DNA of 14,469 nt from UHGV virus genome UHGV-0142781, one strand, 5' to 3'. The stretch comes from a virus. A program made the position numbers and the translations under genes. The notes under the pieces were generated by a model. The model saw only the letters and a program-made list of their open reading frames with translations, was not told the origin of the DNA and ran no database searches. How positions within the stretch are numbered: the stretch's first letter is position 1; each line of letters opens with the position of its first letter. Positions 1,546 through 14,469 of this stretch are shown here, one piece after another.

Positions 1546-2607
1546 ATGACAAAGAAACAGCGTAAAAATAAAAAATTCGGGTCCATGACCGGCAACAAGG
1601 TTGAAACCTTCACGCCAGGGCGCGGAAGCGTGATCACCTTTGGCGAACCAGAACCCATCCTGACGACCGGCACTGATTATCACAATATCTGGTATGACAA
1701 TGAGTATGACCACTGGCGACTCCCGATTGATCGCCTGGCGCTGGCCCAGTTGCCGAACCTTAACGGCCAGCACGGCGGGGTACTGTATGCGCGGCGCAAT
1801 ATGGTGGCCGGTGGCTATATCGGCGGCGGCCTGACGCCTGACCAGGTCGAACAGGCTGTCTTTGATTACCTGCTGTTTGGTGACGTCGCTATCCTGAAAA
1901 TTCGTAACGTATTCGGGGAAGTGATCGACCTGCTGCCGCTGCCGTCGCTGTATCTGCGCTGCCGGAAAGACGGGTCGTTTGCCGTTCTGCAGGAAGGGCC
2001 AGCGCTTATCTATGACCCGGAAGACATCGTTTTCTTTAAAATGTACGACCCTCGCCAGCAGGTGTATGGCCTGCCTGACTATATCGGCGGCATCCATTCG
2101 GTGTTACTCAACAGTGAGGCAACCATCTTCAGGCGCCGTTACTACAATAACGGGGCGCACATGGGCTTTATTCTCTATACCAGCGATCCGAATCTGACGC
2201 TGGAAATGGAAAACGAAATCAAAGAGAAGATCGCCCAGTCCAAAGGGCTGGGTAACTTCCGCAATATGTTTATCAACATCCCGAAGGGCGACCCGGAAGG
2301 GGTTAAAATCCTGCCGGTGGGCGAAGTCAGCGCAAAGGACGAATTTGCCAACATCAAAGGGATCACCGCACAGGATATCTTTACCGCTCACCGTTTCCCC
2401 GCTGGCCTGGCGGGTATCATCCCGACCAATGGCGCGGTAATGGGCAACCCTGAAACCGCCCGCACAACCTATCGCAAGGATGAAGTTATCCCCTTGCAGC
2501 GCAAGCTAATGAACGGCGTCAACAATGACCCGGAGATCCCCGCACACTTGCACCTGGTTTTTGACGTGGATATCCCAGCAATTACCACCGAAAAGGGCGA
2601 AAAATGA
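1546..2607 (+). CDS. Q: Capsid portal protein (P2 gpQ family)
   Basis: 353 aa; motifs FGEPEP, IFRRRYYNNGAHMGFILY, SKGLGNFRNMF and EVSAKDEFANIKGITAQDIFTAHR match my recollection of P2 gpQ. GGGAAAG RBS at 1533-1539. Confidence 0.85.
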   Translation: MTKKQRKNKKFGSMTGNKVETFTPGRGSVITFGEPEPILTTGTDYHNIWYDNEYDHWRLPIDRLALAQLPNLNGQHGGVLYARRNMVAGGYIGGGLTPDQVEQAVFDYLLFGDVAILKIRNVFGEVIDLLPLPSLYLRCRKDGSFAVLQEGPALIYDPEDIVFFKMYDPRQQVYGLPDYIGGIHSVLLNSEATIFRRRYYNNGAHMGFILYTSDPNLTLEMENEIKEKIAQSKGLGNFRNMFINIPKGDPEGVKILPVGEVSAKDEFANIKGITAQDIFTAHRFPAGLAGIIPTNGAVMGNPETARTTYRKDEVIPLQRKLMNGVNNDPEIPAHLHLVFDVDIPAITTEKGEK

Positions 2608-2982: not shown

Positions 2983-4818
2983 ATGAGCAATTCAAAATAC
3001 ATTAATTTAGATGCGAGAATAAAAAAACTAAAAGAAGTTGTTAAAGATTTAGACACAAACACTTTAGCAACCTACTCTTTTTGGGAAATGTACAAATTTG
3101 GTACATTAGGTCAAAAAATTGAACTACAATCACCAGCACGACAAATCTTATATCTTTTTGGGATTGCATGTTCATCTGCTGAACCAACCGAACCAACTGA
3201 TAATGTTGAGGGTAAGATAAAACAAACAGTAGAGATCCTAAATGATATTTTTACAAAATATATGTTGGCGTACTTTCCAACCAAAGATGATTTAAAATCT
3301 GGATTAGAAGATGAATGGCATAAAGTTAGAGAAGTTGCTATGCCAATGTTTTCAAACTACTTTTTTGAAGGGTTAAAAGTTTCCACTGAAAACTTCAAAG
3401 GGATCATAAAAAATTATTTCAATGGTTTTGAAAATGAAATAAAAACACATTTTGGCTTAGATCACCATGAAATGGTAGAAATTTTAAATCTCATTGGTGA
3501 GCTTATACAGAGCAAATATGACAGATTCCGTGAAATAATGGATACATTAAAAGACGAACATGAGAAATTTAAAGAGAATAATTTTGAAAAACATGAAGAT
3601 TTTATAACATATATGGATGACATGAGGGAGCGTACAAAACATTTAGCACAAGAATTTCATGACTTCCTCAATGGGAGTGTATCATTCAAGTTTGATTCAA
3701 TAAGATGTAAACTTGGTGACGATGTCGTTGATAGTTTTATAAAAGCTTTCGTTACAGAGCGTGGAAACTCATCCGAAATCAAATACATTACTGATGAGAA
3801 TCCATTTTCATATAAACCGATAGTAACTGTAAATAATCTGGATTATATGCTCCCTTCTGCTAACGCAGCTTATGAAGCTATCATTCTTAATCTTGAAAAG
3901 TTTTTTAAAGAGTCAAAACACAATGATAAATTTAGAAAAGCCCGAGACAACAGGCTGGAACATGAGACTTTTTGCACCTTTAGAAATTTCTTCCCTGAAT
4001 CAACTACAATACTTGAAAGTGTATTTGAAACAAACAAATCCCATAATGAACATGATCTGATTATTTTCCATGATAAAACGATTCTTATTGTAGAGGCTAA
4101 AGCATCACCACGCCGCGCTCCATTGAGAGAACCAGCCAGAGCATACATTAGAATTAGAGATGATTTCAAACGTAAATCAGGAATACAAAGCGCATCTGAA
4201 CAAGCAAATAACTTAAGAAATTTAATCATTAATAATGAAAAAACATCATTATATGATAAAAAAGGTAATTTACTATATACCATAAATCGTTGTGACTACG
4301 ACAATATATATTGTATATGTGTCACTAAAGATGATTTCGGAATGCTTGCTACAAATTTAACTTTAATGTTAGAAAAAAAAGAAGATGAACCCTACCCTTG
4401 GGTTATTTGTATTCAAGACTTGAAGTTTTATTTTGATTGCCTTAAGGAAATAGATTTGGATCATGACTATTTCTTAAATTATATTCGTGAAAGAATAAAA
4501 ATACACGGCAAAGCAACGGCATGTGATGAGCTTGAATATGCAGGTGCATACTTGAATTATGGTGGTTTCGATTTCATTAATAAAGAAGTAAACTCTAACG
4601 TTTGTCTTGATATCTCTGAATCACGAGTATTCGATGAAATCCATATCGAAAAAGTTAATGGCAGGAAATATGTTCACCAGATTAAAAAACCTACTTACAG
4701 CATTTTAAATAGAGATAAATTAATTTCTTCTTTAAATTTCAATCACTCAAACAAAGATGCAAAAAAAGCAAAATCAAAAAGAAAGGAACAGAAAAAATCC
4801 AGAAAAAGAAACCGTTAA
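2983..4818 (+). CDS. Cargo protein with central PD-(D/E)xK-like nuclease motif and poly-basic C-terminal tail; candidate defence effector
   Basis: 611 aa, strongly AT-rich. Residues 356-373 read EHDLIIFHDKTILIVEAK (D-x12-ExK, nt ~4048-4101). C-terminal 23 residues are almost all K/R/S. No Walker A motif. Confidence 0.85.
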   Translation: MSNSKYINLDARIKKLKEVVKDLDTNTLATYSFWEMYKFGTLGQKIELQSPARQILYLFGIACSSAEPTEPTDNVEGKIKQTVEILNDIFTKYMLAYFPTKDDLKSGLEDEWHKVREVAMPMFSNYFFEGLKVSTENFKGIIKNYFNGFENEIKTHFGLDHHEMVEILNLIGELIQSKYDRFREIMDTLKDEHEKFKENNFEKHEDFITYMDDMRERTKHLAQEFHDFLNGSVSFKFDSIRCKLGDDVVDSFIKAFVTERGNSSEIKYITDENPFSYKPIVTVNNLDYMLPSANAAYEAIILNLEKFFKESKHNDKFRKARDNRLEHETFCTFRNFFPESTTILESVFETNKSHNEHDLIIFHDKTILIVEAKASPRRAPLREPARAYIRIRDDFKRKSGIQSASEQANNLRNLIINNEKTSLYDKKGNLLYTINRCDYDNIYCICVTKDDFGMLATNLTLMLEKKEDEPYPWVICIQDLKFYFDCLKEIDLDHDYFLNYIRERIKIHGKATACDELEYAGAYLNYGGFDFINKEVNSNVCLDISESRVFDEIHIEKVNGRKYVHQIKKPTYSILNRDKLISSLNFNHSNKDAKKAKSKRKEQKKSRKRNR

Positions 4819-4872
4819 CAAAATATCCTTTTGACGAATTCAAACCAACTGAACATATGGAGAAAATAAAAC

Positions 4873-6228
4873 ATGAGAATGACCGCCCCATTAAAATCAT
4901 TTTCTGATGGATTTTGTGAGAATGACGACATTTTTGAAAGAAAAAAACTTCACGACATTATTATGCGAGTTGCTACTAACGCGCCTGATAAAAGTTTAGT
5001 TTTAGCATTAGATGATAAATGGGGTAATGGGAAAACTTCATTTGTAAAAATGATGGAATCAGAAATAAGCAAAAAACATTCCGATGATTTCGAAGTCATC
5101 TATTTTGATGCATTTAAAAGTGATTATCAGTCGGATCCATTTGTAGCGTTAACTTCCAATATTTATTCGTTGGTTAGTAATGAAGAAGGCAAGCTAAAAA
5201 CATTAGGTGAAAAATTATTAAGTGCTGGTAAAAAACTAGGAGCTTCATTCCTTTTAAATGGTGCGAAGTTTGCAATCAGTACTATTTCAGGTGGGATGGT
5301 TTCTGGTACTGTAGTCGAAAAGGCAAGTGATACAATATCAGAATCCATATCATCACCTGTAGAAAAATACATAGAAGAAAAGATAAAAGCAAGTGAGAGT
5401 GAGTTTGCTACTATTGAGCAATTTGGAAATTTGTTAACTGAGATATACAAAGAAAGTGGAAAGAAAATATTTTTTATAATTGATGAATTAGACCGTGCAC
5501 GACCTGATTTTTCATTGGATTTATTAGAAAAGATAAAACATATATTCTCAGTAGAGGGTATTATTTTTCTATTGGTCGTCAATCGCGAACAATTTGAAAA
5601 AAGCATTGAGTCTCGATATGGCAATATAAACTCAAGATTGTATCTCAATAAATTTGTTCATTACTGGTTTTCGCTTCCCAAAACAAGCTGTTTATCTGAT
5701 GGTTGCTTAAATGGATATACTTATTCAACTATAAAACGATATTTACTTTCCATTGATAATGGAAACGACTTATTAAGTAGAAATGGTCCGCTTCTTAATA
5801 CACTATCATTGCTTTTGGAAATAAATGGAGCTTCTTTGAGAGAGGCGGAACGCTGTTACTCGGTATTTTCGGTTATCGAAGATGTCAATAAAGTAAACTA
5901 CTATACAAGTGATGCATATAAAGTAGCTTTGGGACTTGTTGTTTTCCTGAAAGTACATAACTCACAGTTGTTAACTGAAATTGTCTTAAAAAAAATCGTG
6001 TTAAAAGAAGCGATAGCCAAGCTTTTAATATACACAGTTCATCACCACAATATAATCGAAGCTCAATTCATTGAATATATCTTAAAGTACCATTACGCAA
6101 CAAATGAAGAATTAATAGAAGAAAGGAAGCAAAGAACATACTCTGATATAGAAGGTGGATATGGTCGAAGAACTCCCCTATTAGAAGGCATGTTTAAAAC
6201 AGTTGAGGGGTTTGATATTAGTTCTTAA
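4873..6228 (+). CDS. KAP-like P-loop NTPase; candidate defence partner
   Basis: 451 aa, AT-rich. Walker A-like DDKWGNGKTSF (res 47-57, nt 5011-5043) and Walker B FFIIDELDR (res 200-208), about 150 residues apart with a hydrophobic stretch between, as in KAP NTPases. 54-bp gap after the upstream gene, same strand. Confidence 0.85.
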   Translation: MRMTAPLKSFSDGFCENDDIFERKKLHDIIMRVATNAPDKSLVLALDDKWGNGKTSFVKMMESEISKKHSDDFEVIYFDAFKSDYQSDPFVALTSNIYSLVSNEEGKLKTLGEKLLSAGKKLGASFLLNGAKFAISTISGGMVSGTVVEKASDTISESISSPVEKYIEEKIKASESEFATIEQFGNLLTEIYKESGKKIFFIIDELDRARPDFSLDLLEKIKHIFSVEGIIFLLVVNREQFEKSIESRYGNINSRLYLNKFVHYWFSLPKTSCLSDGCLNGYTYSTIKRYLLSIDNGNDLLSRNGPLLNTLSLLLEINGASLREAERCYSVFSVIEDVNKVNYYTSDAYKVALGLVVFLKVHNSQLLTEIVLKKIVLKEAIAKLLIYTVHHHNIIEAQFIEYILKYHYATNEELIEERKQRTYSDIEGGYGRRTPLLEGMFKTVEGFDISS

Positions 6229-6319: not shown

Positions 6320-8932
6320 TTATTTTGGGTGACTACCATCCACACCCGCCAGCATTTTTTGATACTCCCCGACCGGATCAAACCGCAGGCGCGTGGCATC
6401 AATACCGTGGTTATCACGCAGACGGTCCCATAATTTATTCACCGTCCGTGACTCATCGAGTAATTGACGCGTTATCAACTCGCCGCCAGCACTGCCCCGA
6501 TAAACTTTGCCGCCAATCTCCAGACGGCTCCCCATTAACAGCGAAACAGCCTGAATCTCTGAAATCTCAACCGAACACAACGCCGCATCAGCCAGCAGAC
6601 TGGCAACCTCAGGGGCAAGCGCTGCCCGCCTGGCTTTTTCAGCCGCCGATCTGGCCTCGGTTTTTTTAACGGCAGAACGCCAGGCAACATCTAATTCGCT
6701 CCCTGGCTCATAAGGTGATCCGCTTTGCCGCCTTTTGAATGGTGCTTCACGTAGTCGCCGCATCAATTTTCGCCGCGTTGGCTGGTCCATATTTTCAAAA
6801 TCGACGATTTCCTCTTCTGATTCTTCTGTCATACCCTCCACATCACGCGAAAAATCGGTGATTTTTTCGTCTTCCGTAGAGTTATTGACAGAACTCCAAG
6901 CGTCGCCGGTTGGCGACGGCAAAAGGTCAACCCCCAAACCGGGGCCGTTTTTGGCCTCGGTGGTAGCTTTAGATTTGGCGCAGATTTTCCACTTAACCAG
7001 ACGGGTACAAATACGGGAGGCATCACCCAGACGCGGCGACCAGACCCCGAAAACCTTTTCGGGGATCTCACAATAAGCATTCATTTCATCAGCTGGCTGA
7101 TAGGCCAGACGGACGACATAGTTTTCTCGCGGGATCAAAACCCCACCCTGGCGGATGATGTAGGTAGCAAAGCACCCGACATCGGCAGCGGCGCAAACCG
7201 CATCCATTGCAGGATCCACAAGCAACGGCGCACCGCGTTTGAAGGTATTGTCAATTTTCTGGCGGGTCGTGATTTGATTGCTCAGTTTGCGCAGCTCGCG
7301 GTAAACCGATATGGGCGGCTGTCCGATAGGCTGAAACTGGCGGATACGGTGAAGCGATGCCCAGGCCATTGCATATTTGGCGGTTTCATTCAGCGGCTTG
7401 CCGCTTTCGTCGTCCAGTTCACCGGCCAGCGCGTGGCCGTCGATATTCTTCGAAATGTATTTAGCGATATATGCCGTTGCCGACCCTTTCCGTGGGTCCA
7501 TTTTTTTTGACTTGAAACGAGCACCGGTATTGCGGCCCAGCTCATCGCGGTCTTCCGCAATGAAGTAGGCGCGAAGGATCGCAACCGTGGCTTTGACTTG
7601 CTCTTGTGGCATAAACAGCAACGCGTGCCAGTGTGGTGTCCCATCGTGATGCGGCTCGGCGACACGGAAGCCATAAGGGCGCAAATCTTCGCGTTTCAGT
7701 TTGGCGGTTGCACGGTTCCATACACGGCATAAATAGCGCTGCGCCTGGGCGACGGTGGAATGATTCCATTTGGCATTATGGTGGCCGGACGCAATATTAC
7801 TGTGATATTTCGACGGGCAAGTGATGGTCAGGAAAATACCAACATCGCCGCGACTTTGGGCGACAAGTTCAACGCCAGCCATTCTGGTCATAAGCTCATG
7901 GCGACGAATAGCCGGGTTAGACGTGGATTTATTAATCATTTCCTCAAGCGACGAAACGTTGCCGTCTTCGTCTACCAGTTCATGACTTTTGAAAAAATCC
8001 CGGTTTTTACGGCGCTGTTCCTGCCACTCGATCAGGCTGGAAGCGCTAACGTAGGCGTGCGCTTTTTTATTTACCGCGCCAACAGCACGCAGCTGGTTCT
8101 CGCGCCAGTCACAACGCAAGCGCCAGATTTTTCGCCCCCACCAGTCAGGCGAAGCCATACGCAAAATGGCCGTGCATATGCGCTCGCGTTCCCACGGCGC
8201 ATACCATGCAGGCGGCACAATACGAAGCGCCAGCATTTCTCGGCCCAGGTGGCAATAAAGCCAGTCCAGTTCTTCGACGTTCATGTCGGAAACATTCCGC
8301 CCTAGGGCTTCGCATTCCGTCCCCAGCATTTCAGCCATGCGGCTGGCGATCTCATTAGCGGCGCTTAGTGCATCCCGCTTTGTGAAATCAGCCAGACGTT
8401 GCCAGCGCCCGAACCAGTACGCGGCCAGTTCGCCGGTGATATCAGGCGAAACACCTTGCCTTGTGCGTACAACATCAAGACGCAGCAATGATTTTTTCAC
8501 GGTTCCCATAAGAAAATCATTGGTGTGTCTGGTTTCACGGTTGACCCGTAACCACTCAATTTTTTTTCGCCAGACTTCACGAATGAAGAACGGCTCTGCT
8601 AATAAACGCGCTTCGACACCTTCCGGCGTATTGGTCCAGGCTGCCGTCGTAGATTTGGCGGCTTCCATTTCCTGCCGGATTAAATTTTGATGGGCGGCCA
8701 GTGGCAGGCCGCACGGTTCGTACCTGTCCAGCGCCTGGATAAGCGCGTTACGGTCCCGCACCTCGTCGGGGTTGTAACCGGCGTGTCTGAAGATGTGATC
8801 GATGTGTTTTTTTACGGCAGGATGATGCGCCACCGCCCCGGCAAGCGGGGCGATTTTTTTCGGTTCGTAGGTGTACAGGCCAACAGCTGGGCGCGGCGCG
8901 TTCCAGGGCCATGCAAAAGCTGTGTCAGACAT
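6320..8932 (-). CDS. A: Replication initiation protein (P2 gpA family rolling-circle endonuclease)
   Basis: About 870 aa at the expected position upstream of the cargo slot; identified by size, synteny and general resemblance to gpA. ORF track starts at a GTG at 8950; the ATG at 8930-8932 (MSDTAF...) is the more likely start. Confidence 0.85.
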   Translation of the reverse strand: MSDTAFAWPWNAPRPAVGLYTYEPKKIAPLAGAVAHHPAVKKHIDHIFRHAGYNPDEVRDRNALIQALDRYEPCGLPLAAHQNLIRQEMEAAKSTTAAWTNTPEGVEARLLAEPFFIREVWRKKIEWLRVNRETRHTNDFLMGTVKKSLLRLDVVRTRQGVSPDITGELAAYWFGRWQRLADFTKRDALSAANEIASRMAEMLGTECEALGRNVSDMNVEELDWLYCHLGREMLALRIVPPAWYAPWERERICTAILRMASPDWWGRKIWRLRCDWRENQLRAVGAVNKKAHAYVSASSLIEWQEQRRKNRDFFKSHELVDEDGNVSSLEEMINKSTSNPAIRRHELMTRMAGVELVAQSRGDVGIFLTITCPSKYHSNIASGHHNAKWNHSTVAQAQRYLCRVWNRATAKLKREDLRPYGFRVAEPHHDGTPHWHALLFMPQEQVKATVAILRAYFIAEDRDELGRNTGARFKSKKMDPRKGSATAYIAKYISKNIDGHALAGELDDESGKPLNETAKYAMAWASLHRIRQFQPIGQPPISVYRELRKLSNQITTRQKIDNTFKRGAPLLVDPAMDAVCAAADVGCFATYIIRQGGVLIPRENYVVRLAYQPADEMNAYCEIPEKVFGVWSPRLGDASRICTRLVKWKICAKSKATTEAKNGPGLGVDLLPSPTGDAWSSVNNSTEDEKITDFSRDVEGMTEESEEEIVDFENMDQPTRRKLMRRLREAPFKRRQSGSPYEPGSELDVAWRSAVKKTEARSAAEKARRAALAPEVASLLADAALCSVEISEIQAVSLLMGSRLEIGGKVYRGSAGGELITRQLLDESRTVNKLWDRLRDNHGIDATRLRFDPVGEYQKMLAGVDGSHPK

Positions 8933-9146
8933 TGGATGCCCCGCTATCACCCTCCCGCTGGGAATGTTTTTCGATTAGCGGGTCGAGTAACACATTGAAA
9001 GAAATCAACAGCGTATTTGCGGCTTCACTTCCGGCGAGAACACCCGCGAACGTTGCGTGTGCAAGGGCCAGTGTTTTGGCTTCGTTAAGCGCAGCCAGTG
9101 CGCCGCGCTGGTATTCCGAAAGACCGTTATTAATTTTGTTAGCCAT
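8925..9146 (-). CDS. Small hypothetical phage early protein
   Basis: 73 aa; its ATG overlaps the dam stop (TGATG at ~9144-9148), suggesting translational coupling; position matches the small ORFs before A in P2. Confidence 0.6.
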   Translation of the reverse strand: MANKINNGLSEYQRGALAALNEAKTLALAHATFAGVLAGSEAANTLLISFNVLLDPLIEKHSQREGDSGASNV

Positions 9147-10111
9147 CAGAAGACCACCTCGTCAGCCGTCCCACCCCACACGGAATAACCAGCACAAGGG
9201 CCACAGTCAGGACAGCACCCACCACCTGCACGACGACAAGTTGCACAGACTTTGAGGACGCCGATCACTTCACTGGCGGCCCCTCTGGTAATGGCGTTCG
9301 CGCTGACAGAACGGTTAACGCTGATTTCCTGGAAGTTGAAAGCGCGATAAATCTCGCGGGTAGATGGGGTGTCGCTATTGGACAGGATCACCGGCGAACC
9401 AGTAAGGCGGTTAATATCCAGCAGGGCGGCAGCTAACTGGCGATGCTCTTTAATCCCAAACGGGGCGGTGTGGTATTGGGTGAAATTAGCGGTTTCGCTT
9501 GTTGGCAGGTATGGCGGATCGCAGTAGATAACCGCGTCACTACCAATCATAATTTTTAACGTGCTCTGGAAATCGCAGCACACGAAAATGGCTTTCGTGT
9601 CGTTAGCTTTTTCAGTGAATAAACGGATCTGTTCTTCCGGGAAGTAAGGCGGGGTTTTGTGTCGCCCAAAGGGAACGTTATATCCACCCTGTTGGTTGTA
9701 GCGTACTACGCCGTTATATCCGTGACGGTTCAGGTAAAGAAATTGTGCTGCACGAAGAATCTTGCCCGTGTCCGGTCCGTCCTCAAACACATTGCGCGAT
9801 GACAGAAGGTCATAGGCGCGGGCGTTGAAATCATCGCGGATCCACTTATAGCCGTCTTTATCGCCGTACACTTTAAACAGCGGGCGAGCAGCGTCGATCA
9901 CCGCATCAGGCCAGCGGGTTATCTGGCGATACAGGTTAATTAAATCTGGGTTGATATCACCCAGGATATAACGGCGATATTCAGTATTGAGGAAAACAGA
10001 AGCACCGCCGACAAACGGTTCCACCAGGCAATCGGCTTTCGGCAGAATCGTTAGCAAATCAGGCATAACCCGGCCTTTGCCACCGGGCCATTTAACGAGA
10101 GATCGAATCAT
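9146..10111 (-). CDS. dam: DNA adenine methyltransferase (Dam family) with Cys-rich C-terminal extension
   Basis: N-terminal KWPGGK, EPFVGG and catalytic DPPY (res 198-201) motifs; GGAGAAAG RBS. C-terminal about 35 residues carry six Cys (CATC...CC..C..C). Confidence 0.9.
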   Translation of the reverse strand: MIRSLVKWPGGKGRVMPDLLTILPKADCLVEPFVGGASVFLNTEYRRYILGDINPDLINLYRQITRWPDAVIDAARPLFKVYGDKDGYKWIRDDFNARAYDLLSSRNVFEDGPDTGKILRAAQFLYLNRHGYNGVVRYNQQGGYNVPFGRHKTPPYFPEEQIRLFTEKANDTKAIFVCCDFQSTLKIMIGSDAVIYCDPPYLPTSETANFTQYHTAPFGIKEHRQLAAALLDINRLTGSPVILSNSDTPSTREIYRAFNFQEISVNRSVSANAITRGAASEVIGVLKVCATCRRAGGGCCPDCGPCAGYSVWGGTADEVVF

Positions 10112-11800: not shown

Positions 11801-12076
11801 TTATGATGGATTGCCCAGACCCAACCACATTAACCACCCTTCCCTAATTTCCTTCGGGCGGCTCTCATACGCCATTTTCATTCCGTTGTTCCATGCTGGG
11901 AGGTAGACCCAGTACTCACCTGCCCGCCCGGAAGTTGATTGCGGATCGGTCATCTCAACTACGGGTAGCTTTCCTTTTTCAATCATCCCCTTCACCGCTG
12001 CCGGTGTTTTACCAATGAGTTTTGCGAACTCCTGATATGGGACGGCATCTGTGCTTAACGCGATCTGTTTAACCAT
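11801..12076 (-). CDS. cox: Cox (excisionase / lytic-switch regulator)
   Basis: 91 aa; translation tracks my recollection of P2 Cox over most of its length (AIPYQEFAKLIGK, DPQSTSGRAGEYWVYLPAWNNG, ESRPKEIREGWLMWLGLG). GAGGG RBS. Confidence 0.9.
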   Translation of the reverse strand: MVKQIALSTDAVPYQEFAKLIGKTPAAVKGMIEKGKLPVVEMTDPQSTSGRAGEYWVYLPAWNNGMKMAYESRPKEIREGWLMWLGLGNPS

Positions 12077-12192
12077 TTAAGGCCCTCACAAGTTTAAGAA
12101 TCGTCACCAATGGCTTATAGTTGCCTTTGATGTTCATTTCTAAACATCAAACAGTCTACATCTAAATCAAATGGTATTGAGATCTAAACACT
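12077..12192. promoter_or_regulatory. Immunity switch region between cox and C (early and repressor promoters with operator repeats)
   Basis: Three direct repeats TCTAAACA (12139-12146), TCTAAATC (12161-12168), TCTAAACA (12183-12190), exactly 22 bp apart. A TATAAG -10-like element on the minus strand (~12113-12118) faces cox. Confidence 0.6.
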
Positions 12193-12492
12193 ATGTCAAA
12201 CGCCTTAAACGAGAAAATTGTACTCATCAGAAAGTCTGAGTATCTCAGCAGACAGCAACTAGCTGATTTAACAGGCATTCCCTATGGCACTTTAAGTTAT
12301 TACGAAAGTGGTCGTTCTACACCGCCCACGGACGTAATGATGAGGATTTTGCAAATGCCCCAATTCAGCAAATACACGTTGTGGTTTATGACCGATCAGG
12401 TTGCTCCCGAAGCCGGTCAGATAGCACCGGCCCTCGCACACTTTGGGCAAGATGTAACAACATCGCAGCACTCAGACCAAAAGATTGGTTAA
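12193..12492 (+). CDS. C: Immunity repressor C
   Basis: 99 aa; near-collinear with my recollection of P2 C (EKIVLIRKSEYLSRQQLADLTGIPYGTLSYYESGRSTPPTDVMM...), same length. Confidence 0.9.
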   Translation: MSNALNEKIVLIRKSEYLSRQQLADLTGIPYGTLSYYESGRSTPPTDVMMRILQMPQFSKYTLWFMTDQVAPEAGQIAPALAHFGQDVTTSQHSDQKIG

Positions 12493-12637
12493 CCATTCAC
12501 CAGGCGCATCTTTATTACAAAATTTGTTTACTTGTTGCCAAATACAACAAACACAACAAGTTTGTGAAATCTAAGCGCAAGGGAAAATTAACAGCAGCAA
12601 AGAAAACTCAACCTAGCACCATTCATTTGGGGGTCTT

Positions 12638-13645
12638 ATGACAATTAAGAAACTCGATGATGGTCGTTATGAAGTGGATATCAGACCTGCAGGGCGCAAC
12701 GGAAAGCGCATCCGCAGGAAATTTGACAAGAAAAGTGAGGCTGTAGCTTTTGAGAAACACACTCAATACAACCATCACGATAAAGAATGGCTGGCTAAAC
12801 CGACAGATAAGCGGCATCTGTCTGAATTAACAAAAGTCTGGTGGGATCTGAAAGGCAAGCATGAAGAACACGGAAAATCCAATTTGGGTAAGATTGAAAT
12901 CTTTACCCGGATCACTGATGACCCTTGCGCGTTCCAGATAACCAAAGCGCTTATTAGCCAGTACAGCATGACTCGCAGAGGGCAAGGCATAAAACCGGCC
13001 AGTATTAACCGCGACCTTACCTGCTTGAGTGGTATGTTTACTGCGCTAATTGATGCGGAGTTGTTTTTTGGCGAACACCCTTTCAGAGGGATGAAAAAGC
13101 TCAAGGAGCAGAAACCAGAAACAGGCTATCTGACGCAGGAAGAAATAACATTGTTGCTTGCCAATCTTGACGGGGACAACAAGAAAATCGCGATTCTCTG
13201 TTTAAGTACCGGCGCTCGATGGGGTGAGGCCGCGAAACTGAAAGCTGAGAACGTAATACAGAATCGGGTGACGTTCGTTAAAACAAAGACGAACAAACCA
13301 CGTACTGTCCCTATCTCTGAGGAAGTAGCTGTAATGATTGCGGGTAAAGGGTATCTGTTCCCAGATGCCTCATACCCGAAGTTCAGGCGAACAATGAAAG
13401 ATGTAAAACCAGATCTACCGGACGGGCAAGCAACTCACGCATTGCGTCACAGTTTTGCTACCCACTTTATGATTAACGGCGGGAGTATCATCACCTTGCA
13501 GAGAATACTGGGACATTCACGGATAGAGCAGACAATGGTCTATGCGCACTTTGCCCCGGAGTATCTTCAGGATGCTGTTTCACTCAATCCGCTACGTGGT
13601 GGTGTTGACTCCCAGAGTGTCCACACTGTGTCCACAGTAGGGTAG
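12638..13645 (+). CDS. int: Tyrosine integrase (P2 Int family)
   Basis: 335 aa; N-terminus MTIKKLDDGRYEVDIRPAGRNGKRIRRKFDKKSEAVAFEK and C-terminal HALRHSFATHFM...LGHSRIEQTMVYAHFAPEY match P2 Int as I recall it. GGGGG RBS. Confidence 0.95.
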   Translation: MTIKKLDDGRYEVDIRPAGRNGKRIRRKFDKKSEAVAFEKHTQYNHHDKEWLAKPTDKRHLSELTKVWWDLKGKHEEHGKSNLGKIEIFTRITDDPCAFQITKALISQYSMTRRGQGIKPASINRDLTCLSGMFTALIDAELFFGEHPFRGMKKLKEQKPETGYLTQEEITLLLANLDGDNKKIAILCLSTGARWGEAAKLKAENVIQNRVTFVKTKTNKPRTVPISEEVAVMIAGKGYLFPDASYPKFRRTMKDVKPDLPDGQATHALRHSFATHFMINGGSIITLQRILGHSRIEQTMVYAHFAPEYLQDAVSLNPLRGGVDSQSVHTVSTVG

Positions 13646-13726
13646 TTTATTATGGCTTTCAGTGGTCTTGCGTGCCGCGCAAACCCGCATTGCACCGCTG
13701 AAAGCCCATGTTACCTACCCTGAAAA

Positions 13727-13753
13727 ACGCCCTTACGCAGGCTTATTTTTTGC
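13727..13753. other. Candidate attL core (P2 att-core-like sequence) marking the prophage-host junction
   Basis: CGCCCTTACGCAGGCTTATTTTTTG is close to the reverse complement of the P2 core as I recall it (AAAAAATAAGCCCGTGTAAGGGAGATT); lies about 80 bp after the int stop, just before the clpA terminator. Confidence 0.45.
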
Positions 13754-13804
13754 CTGCCGTTTAAACTCCCTGAATATCCCAATTCAAATCACTTTTATCA
13801 GGCG

Positions 13805-13829
13805 AAAAAAAACCGGGCATTACGCCCGG
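13805..13829 (-). terminator. Rho-independent terminator of clpA
   Basis: Minus strand reads GCCGGGC-GTAAT-GCCCGG followed by eight U (stem 13813-13818 / 13824-13829, U-run 13805-13812), about 20 bp after the clpA stop. Confidence 0.75.
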
Positions 13830-13848
13830 CTGATTAGGTGATTAAAGA

Positions 13849-14469
13849 TTAATGTGCAGCTTCTGGCTTGTGCTTTTGCGCACTCTGGAAACCATAAGTC
13901 AGCTCATTTTTCTCTTTATCCAGCGCAACGGTCACCTGGCCACCATCCACCAGCGAACCGAACAGCAGTTCGTTAGCCAATGGTTTTTTCAGGTTATCCT
14001 GGACAACACGCGTCATTGGACGTGCGCCCATTGCGCGGTCGTAGCCTTTCTCTGCCAGCCAGTCACGTGCTTCCTGGCTCACTTCCAGAGAGACACCTTT
14101 CTGATCCAGCTGAACCTGAAGCTCGACGATAAACTTATCAACAACCTGATGAATCACCTCGGTAGAGAGATGATCAAACCAGATAATGTTGTCGAGGCGG
14201 TTACGGAATTCCGGCGTAAACACTTTTTTGATTTCGCCCATTGCATCAGTACTATTGTCCTGATGAATCAACCCAATCGATTTACGCTCAGTTTCACGCA
14301 CACCGGCGTTGGTGGTCATGACCAGCACCACATTGCGGAAATCCGCTTTACGCCCGTTATTGTCGGTCAGCGTGCCGTTATCCATCACCTGCAACAGCAG
14401 GTTAAAGACATCCGGGTGTGCTTTTTCGATTTCATCCAGCAGCAGTACCGCATGCGGATGCTTAATAAC
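13849..14469 (-). CDS. clpA: ATP-dependent Clp protease ATP-binding subunit ClpA, C-terminal part (gene runs off window end)
   Basis: Translation ...LLQVMDNGTLTDNNGRKADFRNVVLVMTTNAG...ALDKEKNELTYGFQSAQKHKPEAAH matches the ClpA C-terminus nearly residue for residue; stop at 13849-13851. Confidence 0.95.
   Translation of the reverse strand, partial: VIKHPHAVLLLDEIEKAHPDVFNLLLQVMDNGTLTDNNGRKADFRNVVLVMTTNAGVRETERKSIGLIHQDNSTDAMGEIKKVFTPEFRNRLDNIIWFDHLSTEVIHQVVDKFIVELQVQLDQKGVSLEVSQEARDWLAEKGYDRAMGARPMTRVVQDNLKKPLANELLFGSLVDGGQVTVALDKEKNELTYGFQSAQKHKPEAAH

Follow-up and report, generated by a model that had tools for sequence, protein, structure and literature searches.

The gap between the immunity repressor gene C and the integrase gene int of this P2-like prophage contains an open frame, -1 relative to C, that is conserved among relatives, and our confidence that this hidden frame is under selection is high. 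The reading that best accounts for the data, to which we assign a probability of about 55%, is that the gap is a conserved coding frame that ribosomes would enter by rare -1 recoding of C and that termination in this frame would be coupled to initiation of int. As part of this reading an inverted repeat found in the gap is probably an incidental and lineage-specific weak hairpin that arose in part from an in-frame 9-nt tandem duplication.

The window, by which we mean the whole stretch of DNA that was analyzed (14,469 nucleotides of virus genome UHGV-0142781), has at its right part the end of a P2-like (Peduovirus) prophage in which cox, C, int and att follow one another (Table 1). P2 is a classical model phage, and the window has the makings of its lysogenic operon: the gene order Pc-C-int-attP, a P2-like C (84% identical to P2 C), a P2-like Cox and Int, arm repeats and a core. 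The C-int transcript would be driven by Pc. The prophage-host junction is found at 13617-13754, ahead of the 3' end of the host clpA gene, and as a tRNA search of the window found no such gene, integration is not at a tRNA gene. Of 5426 complete E. coli genomes, 19 have the gap sequence with 98.8% identity, and the RefSeq annotation of the matching genomes has nothing between C and int. The prophage copy in the window (13650-13850) adjoins the clpA 3' end and a near-identical C-int segment of E. coli O45:H2 adjoins yegR; thus, one immunity-integrase module is present at two different chromosomal sites.

The original prediction described the C-int separation as an unusually long spacer of about 145 bp. 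The length is correct (12493-12637, 145 nt) and is near the top of the 30-173 nt range seen in relatives, but "unusually long" is only partly apt, as the gap of P2 is already 115 nt, the length also found in a Klebsiella phage. The gap of the window exceeds that of P2 by 30 nt, or 10 codons.

Table 1 Positions of the features discussed, numbered from the first nucleotide of the window
Feature	Position	Strand	Basis or remark
Portal-like ORF	1546-2607	+	
Replication gene A	6320-8950	-	
cox	11801-12076	-	
Pc promoter-like site	12094-12121	+	Promoter scan; layout agrees with P2 annotation
Pe promoter-like site	12199-12171	-	Promoter scan; faces Pc; layout agrees with P2 annotation
C, P2-type immunity repressor, 99 aa, HTH_3 domain	12193-12492	+	ORF list and Pfam match
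Hidden ORF, conserved part, -1 frame of C, reads RTLWARCNNIAALRPKDWLTIHQAHLYYKICLLVAKYNKHNKFVKSKRKGKLTAAKKTQPSTIHLGVL*	12435-12641	+	Open frame and amino-acid conservation
Candidate -1 slip site, C-frame CAA_AAG with in-phase A_AAG (12480-83)	12478-12483	+	This lineage
C-int gap, 145 nt	12493-12637	+	Coding annotation absent from every record examined
Extended imperfect hairpin, MFE fold	12496-12585	+	Outer stem GCGC 12504-07 with GCGC 12575-78
Inverted repeat ACTTGTTG, 16-nt loop, CAACAAGT	12530-12561	+	5' arm within conserved Leu-Leu-Val-Ala codons of hidden ORF
9-nt tandem duplication ACAACAAAC / ACAACAAGT	12544-12561	+	Read from sequence; two alternative 3' arms for hairpin
int ribosome-binding region: GGGGG, 4 nt, ATG	12629-12640	+	Inside last codons of hidden -1 ORF
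int, P2-type tyrosine integrase, 335 aa	12638-13645	+	ORF list and Pfam
Int arm-type repeats (GTGTCCACA twice) and att core-like CCCTTACGCAGGCTTATTTTTTGCC	13617-13754	+	Alignment with annotated P2 attP

Conservation of the -1 frame

In the window the -1 frame is open from position 12267, and its TGA stop (12639-12641) overlaps the int initiation codon to give ATGA. The first sample of 18 lineages all had this frame open from within C through the gap to the int start, and none of the 33 distinct gaps of the first set had a -1-frame stop, with one to five stops present in each of the other frames. Shuffling put the chance of an open frame at 0.03-0.10 per lineage. A set of 24 diverse lineages, which includes Wphi, L-413C, SEN5, 3LV2017, P88_4B11 and ESSI2_ev239, gave gap totals of 32 stops in the C frame, 57 in the +1 frame and none in the -1 frame; antisense ORFs were also sought in these lineages and all three antisense frames carry stops (40, 55 and 41). 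Among 98 distinct sequences drawn from 209 loci carrying both C and int, for which the counts are not phylogenetically independent, the stops numbered 114, 224 and 8 (C, +1 and -1 frames, respectively) and the -1 frame was open across the whole gap in 94 (gaps of 63-145 nt).

The four exceptions are understandable. One Pseudomonas phage has a different C tail, and L195 has a single CAA to TAA nonsense change. In the other two, L222 and L223, the gap is 173 nt long; the frame extends for 36 codons past the end of C and stops 63 nt short of int, ahead of two hairpins, and in that lineage the hidden frame is uncoupled from int. These two loci (~1580-1760) encode a longer hidden peptide with a hydrophobic tail resembling a membrane helix (..ISWLDSIIVLVLMDFILNE), and one of the two hairpins 3' of the frame is terminator-like (TTTTTCCGCTGCACGGAAAAAA). 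Gap length is 0 or 1 mod 3 in 96 of the 98 sequences and 2 mod 3 only in L222 and L223; a gap of 2 mod 3 would fuse the -1 frame to int. Hence, the phase of the frame is fixed relative to C, rather than to int.

The gap was then scored for protein-level conservation by a BLOSUM column-shuffle test (1000 shuffles) in which nucleotide conservation is held constant. The -1 frame gave z = 6.0 (5.2 with stop-containing pairs ignored), a value reached by none of the 1000 shuffles, versus z values between -0.9 and 1.8 for the C and +1 frames. Pairwise differences in the -1 frame were 0.36, 0.24 and 0.49 at the first, second and third codon positions, and dN/dS was ~0.27 compared with 0.62 in a control frame. 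Synonymous changes are seen in the alignment, with threonine encoded by all four ACN codons, arginine by CGT, CGA, CGC and AGG, and leucine by CTA, TTA, CTT and TTG, and conservative replacements are also seen between relatives. The differences in length between gap classes (30, 9 and 3 nt) are in frame. Alignment of 15 hidden peptides showed R2, W5, A6, N9, L14, R15, W19 and L20 to be invariant, and the tail has the motif ..R-T-L/H-W-A..L-R-x-x-D/N-W-L-T-I/L..Y-I..C... The 5' half of the gap is its conserved part.

No homologue of the hidden peptide was found by a word-indexed search or by a full HMMER search of 1.84 billion representatives, and there was no match in Pfam, PHROGs or the PDB and no similarity to the long C protein of Pseudoalteromonas phage C5a. 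An AlphaFold2 model from the single sequence had two helices with a mean pLDDT of 63, too weak for use. A profile search returned four database proteins in which C-frame sequence continues into -1-frame sequence. Two of them, P0001 and P0002, were considered as natural fusions of the two frames and rejected as assembly artefacts, cox and int also being broken by indels in those assemblies; with at least two of the four so affected, these proteins are given no weight as evidence.

The hidden frame overlaps the last ~19 codons of C, and in this overlap synonymous variation of C is suppressed, as in overlapping genes. Synonymous diversity, measured as the fraction of pairs having the same amino acid that differ in codon, is 0.5-0.65 through codon 80 of C and falls to 0.07-0.15 from codon 81 (12433) to the stop; the Wphi group has its boundary at codon 81 as well. 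The column-shuffle z in the overlap was 2.9 for the -1 frame (range 2.3-2.9) versus 1.6 for the C frame. In the P2 C structure the last 14 residues are disordered, and deletion of the last nine leaves repression unaffected (PMC2995052). Synonymous constraint in a disordered and dispensable C tail fits that structure.

Two phages have lost the end of C. In P88_4B11 (L117) and ESSI2_ev239 (L115), at 1795-1830, C ends five to six codons early (TGA or TAA) and ..AAAAYTGGTTAG is kept 3' of the early stop; in the C frame it is what is left of QKTG*, and in the -1 frame it reads ENWL. The stretch whose C-frame reading would be GQKTG* or KLKIG* remains, conserved, 3' of the C stop. Synonymous constraint in the P88 and ESSI2 groups begins upstream of a -1-frame stop, and thus part of the constraint may stem from another element. 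The codons CCG GCN CTC (window 12433-12489, C codons 81-99; CCGGCTCTC(TCTCTT) in P88, ESSI2 and 705R2) are nearly invariant synonymously, even in lineages with a -1 stop just downstream, where the motif continues into a (CT)5 run; an additional nucleotide-level constraint may act at this motif. A long-range interaction between CUCUC or CCCUC in C and the int Shine-Dalgarno sequence was weighed and rejected, as the third base of codon 80 varies without covariation.

Another reading makes the gap RNA an operator at which Int represses translation of its own mRNA, the Int site being either the hairpin or the 5' half, which is conserved. Yu, Barreiro and Haggard-Ljungquist (J Virol 68:4220) reportedly found in 1994 that P2 Int autoregulates post-transcriptionally, and their work is cited as an example of a viral protein that limits its own production by binding its mRNA. 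Such an operator would be compatible with a translated frame bridging C and int. However, the conservation is codon-like and at the level of protein rather than structure, and the arm-type motif GTCCACA is absent from the gap, which make an operator unlikely.

Stops at the int start and proposed entry into the frame

In 92 of the 98 sequences the hidden frame ends at one of three positions relative to the int start: +8 (59 sequences; TAA within ATG NNN ATT AAG), +1 (23; ATGA) or -2 (10; TGATG). Hence, the stop of the upstream frame lies within a few nucleotides of the downstream start. Which stop is used varies with gap phase: all 33 mod-1 gaps have ATGA or TGATG, versus 8 of 62 mod-0 gaps, and int codons 3-4 read NTT-AAR in 60 of 62 mod-0 cases versus 22 of 33 mod-1 cases (Fisher p = 3e-18 and 1e-4, respectively, uncorrected for shared ancestry). 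The int gene of P2 begins ATGG, and a compensating TGATG is present. The placement of the stop and its tracking of gap phase are, as read from the alignments, a signature of translational coupling. Most lineages provide int with a good Shine-Dalgarno sequence, and thus there is no obvious need for coupling.

How might ribosomes reach this frame? The open part of the -1 frame lacks ATG, GTG and TTG in most lineages (e.g., L084, L083, L029, L026, L085 and L087), and thus recoding from C is the simplest and likeliest mode of entry. In this mechanism ribosomes translating C would shift into the hidden frame at low frequency, giving a C variant with a new C-terminus of 45-70 residues, and termination at ATGA, TGATG or the +8 TAA would hand ribosomes to the int start. 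Int would then be made from the Pc transcript in a small and fixed proportion to C.

We regard -1 frameshifting as the leading, unproven mode of entry, with moderate to low confidence, and the site may differ between lineages. The candidate slip site of the window contains A_AAG, the tetramer most prone to shifting in E. coli, although tetramers alone shift at only ~0.15% and a stimulator is needed to exceed this value (PMC4066793). An in-phase A_AAG or A_AAA is found 2-5 codons ahead of the C stop in the window, in P2 and in many others. However, an in-phase A_AAR is present in only 42 of 67 distinct C tails, and occurrences by phase (45 in phase versus 45 and 16) show no in-phase enrichment; L-413C, SEN5, pro483 and 3LV2017 have none. 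No slippery heptamer was found in the relevant part of C. Hence, the conserved slippery motif expected of a -1 frameshift cassette is absent. The onset of synonymous constraint at codon 81 does not match the candidate slip site at codons 96-97.

A search for a conserved stimulatory RNA structure around the C stop likewise found none. The Klebsiella phi5.4 group has a 9-bp stem around the C stop that starts directly at the candidate slip site, not a few nucleotides downstream. In Klebsiella phage ST16-OXA48phi5.4 (L002, 1612-1632), and also in L010 and L013, this is a perfect 9-bp hairpin, ACTGGTTAA-CAA-TTAACCAGT, that encloses the C stop, and the L010 version has two changes with pairing kept by G-U wobble. 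The 69-nt gap of the Wphi group (L112, Wphi; L113, L-413C) has a 7-bp inverted repeat of its own, TTCACCA..13 nt..TGGTGAA, that is partly preserved by wobble pairs in SEN5.

If the -1 frame were instead a separate small gene with non-canonical or lineage-specific initiation, rather than an extension of C, the lack of a conserved slip site would be expected, and some lineages do have in-frame starts (GTG 12381 in the window and an ATG in L027). The dearth of ATG, GTG and TTG codons in most lineages argues against a separate gene, as does inspection by eye of the -1 frame, in which no conserved near-cognate start codon or upstream Shine-Dalgarno sequence was seen. A conserved Ile/Val/Leu position (ATC, GTC, CTC) behaves as an ordinary hydrophobic residue and not as a start. 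We consider a separate gene just as unlikely as the Int operator.

Recoding within the last ~20 codons of C, if it occurs, would give a hitherto unrecognised trans-frame protein composed of the helix-turn-helix body of C plus a conserved tail of 45-70 residues that ends on the int start, with the recoding frequency setting the Int:C ratio. That P2-type phages in general make such a protein is a tentative proposal that we hold as possible and somewhat doubtful. Were it correct, the extended repressor could have a role of its own in lysogeny or in the decision to excise, and several oddities would be explained if the gap is a translated bridge: the lack of a promoter for int, the avoidance by the gap of short and 2 mod 3 lengths, and the disordered, dispensable C tail being the most conserved part of C, even synonymously. 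Such a bridge would also mean that annotation has missed a coding feature of P2-like prophages of enterobacteria. How P2 integrase is kept low yet linked to the repressor has been discussed since Bertani's split-operon idea.

The inverted repeat and RNA structure of the gap

The original prediction placed in the gap an inverted repeat that might act as an attenuator or a small regulatory element controlling integrase levels. The repeat itself is present: ACTTGTTG (12530-12537) and CAACAAGT (12554-12561) are perfectly complementary and flank an A/C-rich loop of 16 nt, and the whole lies inside the hidden ORF. It is an ordinary repeat, its occurrence above chance being not confirmed. When the gap was dinucleotide-shuffled 5000 times, 9.5% of the shuffles had a perfect inverted repeat of at least 8 nt with a loop of 3-30 nt, and the 14.5-kb window contains ~10 repeats of this kind. 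The hairpin has a folding energy of about -6.6 kcal/mol and is rivaled by an equally good pairing because CAACAA is present twice, the 3' arm being the second copy of the 9-nt tandem duplication. This duplication keeps the frame of the hidden ORF (..NKH NKF..), and in L004 and L005 its copies are ACAACAAGC and ACAACAAGT. By itself the inverted repeat is of little consequence.

That neither the repeat nor the open frame has any function, the repeat being a chance by-product of duplication and the open frame a by-product of nucleotide constraints (e.g., binding sites on the DNA or RNA), would agree with the insignificance of the repeat alone and with the constraint in C of the P88 group, which lies partly outside the open frame. 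It is very improbable in view of the frame: the open-frame shuffle probabilities sum to log10 p = -16 (lineages with unalignable gaps taken as independent), only one of the six frames is open, amino-acid similarity exceeds that given by column composition, and the position of the stop tracks gap phase.

RNA structure prediction, the check proposed for the repeat, gave a weak hairpin and a mildly unusual folding energy for the whole gap (z = -1.97 to -2.47 versus shuffles), but no consensus in relatives. The stem is AU-rich, with two G-C pairs of eight, and is followed directly by UUGUGAAAUC rather than by a U-tract; thus, it lacks both the G+C-rich stem and the U-tract of a terminator. Scans of 12493-12637 predicted no terminator and no promoter, and Rfam 15 at the gathering score had no match in the whole window. 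The hairpin is confined to one spacer class. Seven of its eight pairs are kept in the Kluyvera relative L084, the register is lost in L086, and across the 142-145-nt class the hairpin is kept in parts only, with shifting registers. RNAalifold gave no consensus pairs and no covariation for the gaps of 18 lineages, and the segment from -72 to +60 around the C stop had neither conserved structure nor covariation. When the gaps of 15 lineages were folded on both strands, only those of the window, P2 and L083 were about 2 SD or more below shuffles, and the remaining 12 had z values of -1.4 to +1.2, mostly near zero. The P2 gap has an 8-bp G+C-rich hairpin of its own, TGGTGGCT..AGCCACCA, with a 5' arm homologous to that of the window, which is followed by an A-run and not by a U-run.

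The least probable reading is therefore that the hairpin is an attenuator, partial terminator or small regulatory RNA structure by which int is transcribed less than C: the repeat does exist, the gap does fold better than its shuffles (z = -2.0 to -2.5) and the P2 and window lineages each built a hairpin on a homologous 5' arm, but the AU-rich stem at -6.6 kcal/mol, the missing U-tract and terminator, the frequency of such repeats in shuffles, the RNAalifold result, the shuffle-like gaps of most relatives and the A-run of P2 all speak against it. What survives of the original proposal is its general idea that the spacer ties int expression to C, which would be achieved by the conserved -1 frame ending at the int start, and not by the repeat or by attenuation.

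Relation to known systems and other features of the window

The proposed arrangement of a recoded bridge from C to int most resembles that of IS1 (InsA/InsAB') and the IS3 family (OrfA/OrfAB), in which the zero-frame product is also a small helix-turn-helix DNA-binding repressor, a -1 ORF lacking a start overlaps the 3' end of the repressor gene, A-rich tetramers or heptamers (A_AAG, A_AAA_AAG) are the slip sites (here only a candidate site), and synthesis of the recombination enzyme is kept low relative to that of the repressor, as we propose for Int. It differs in that the -1 frame stops on the int start, with the gap phases that would fuse the two avoided, and in that no slippery motif or stimulator is conserved. 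The junction with int is like that of operons coupled through ATGA or TGATG and of termination-reinitiation in RNA phages, where the upstream frame ends -2 to +10 nt from the AUG and the Shine-Dalgarno sequence lies inside the upstream ORF. Unlike ordinary operon coupling, the upstream frame here is apparently reachable only by recoding from C.

Within the same phage family the P2 E/E' tail chaperone (like lambda G/GT) has a conserved -1 frame extension, as would C if the proposed frameshift occurs; E/E' is another gene with a defined slippery heptamer, and its product is not coupled to a downstream start. FseA of ICEMlSymR7A is a factor controlling integration or excision of a mobile element whose very low level is set by recoding, much as proposed here, although it is a transcriptional activator made by a +1 frameshift that fuses msi172 and msi171 and is not coupled to an integrase start. 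P2 Int autoregulation and lambda sib retroregulation are likewise post-transcriptional controls of integrase on a repressor-linked transcript; they differ in working through protein-RNA binding or RNase III 3' processing, rather than through a translated bridge ORF. If correct, the combination of a repressor, its recoded extension and stop/start coupling to a recombinase would be a new arrangement among the recoding controls of mobile elements.

We found no prior description of an ORF bridging C and int in the literature. In the available portion of a 2016 recoding review phage P2 is named only once, where the FETUD tail-operon (E/E') frameshift paper is cited. Neither a frameshift nor an open reading frame is mentioned in a phylogenetic study of the regulatory regions of P2-like phages, and the spacers discussed there are those from C to cox.

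The window has other features of interest. A 9-bp perfect inverted repeat, TTTGATGTT / AACATCAAA, is located at 12126-12151 between the Pc and Pe promoter-like sites. As P2 C binds direct repeats, this inverted repeat may be a Cox site or an operator belonging to another immunity type. Between gene A and the portal-like ORF, at 2983-6228 (+), are two large ORFs of 611 aa and 451 aa in what we take to be the variable cargo region that adjoins gene A in the P2 gene order. The 611-aa ORF had no Pfam match and the 451-aa ORF has a KAP-family P-loop NTPase domain; given their position in the cargo region, the pair may be anti-phage cargo. The early region contains, at 9146-10111 (-), a gene for a D12-class N6-adenine DNA methyltransferase.
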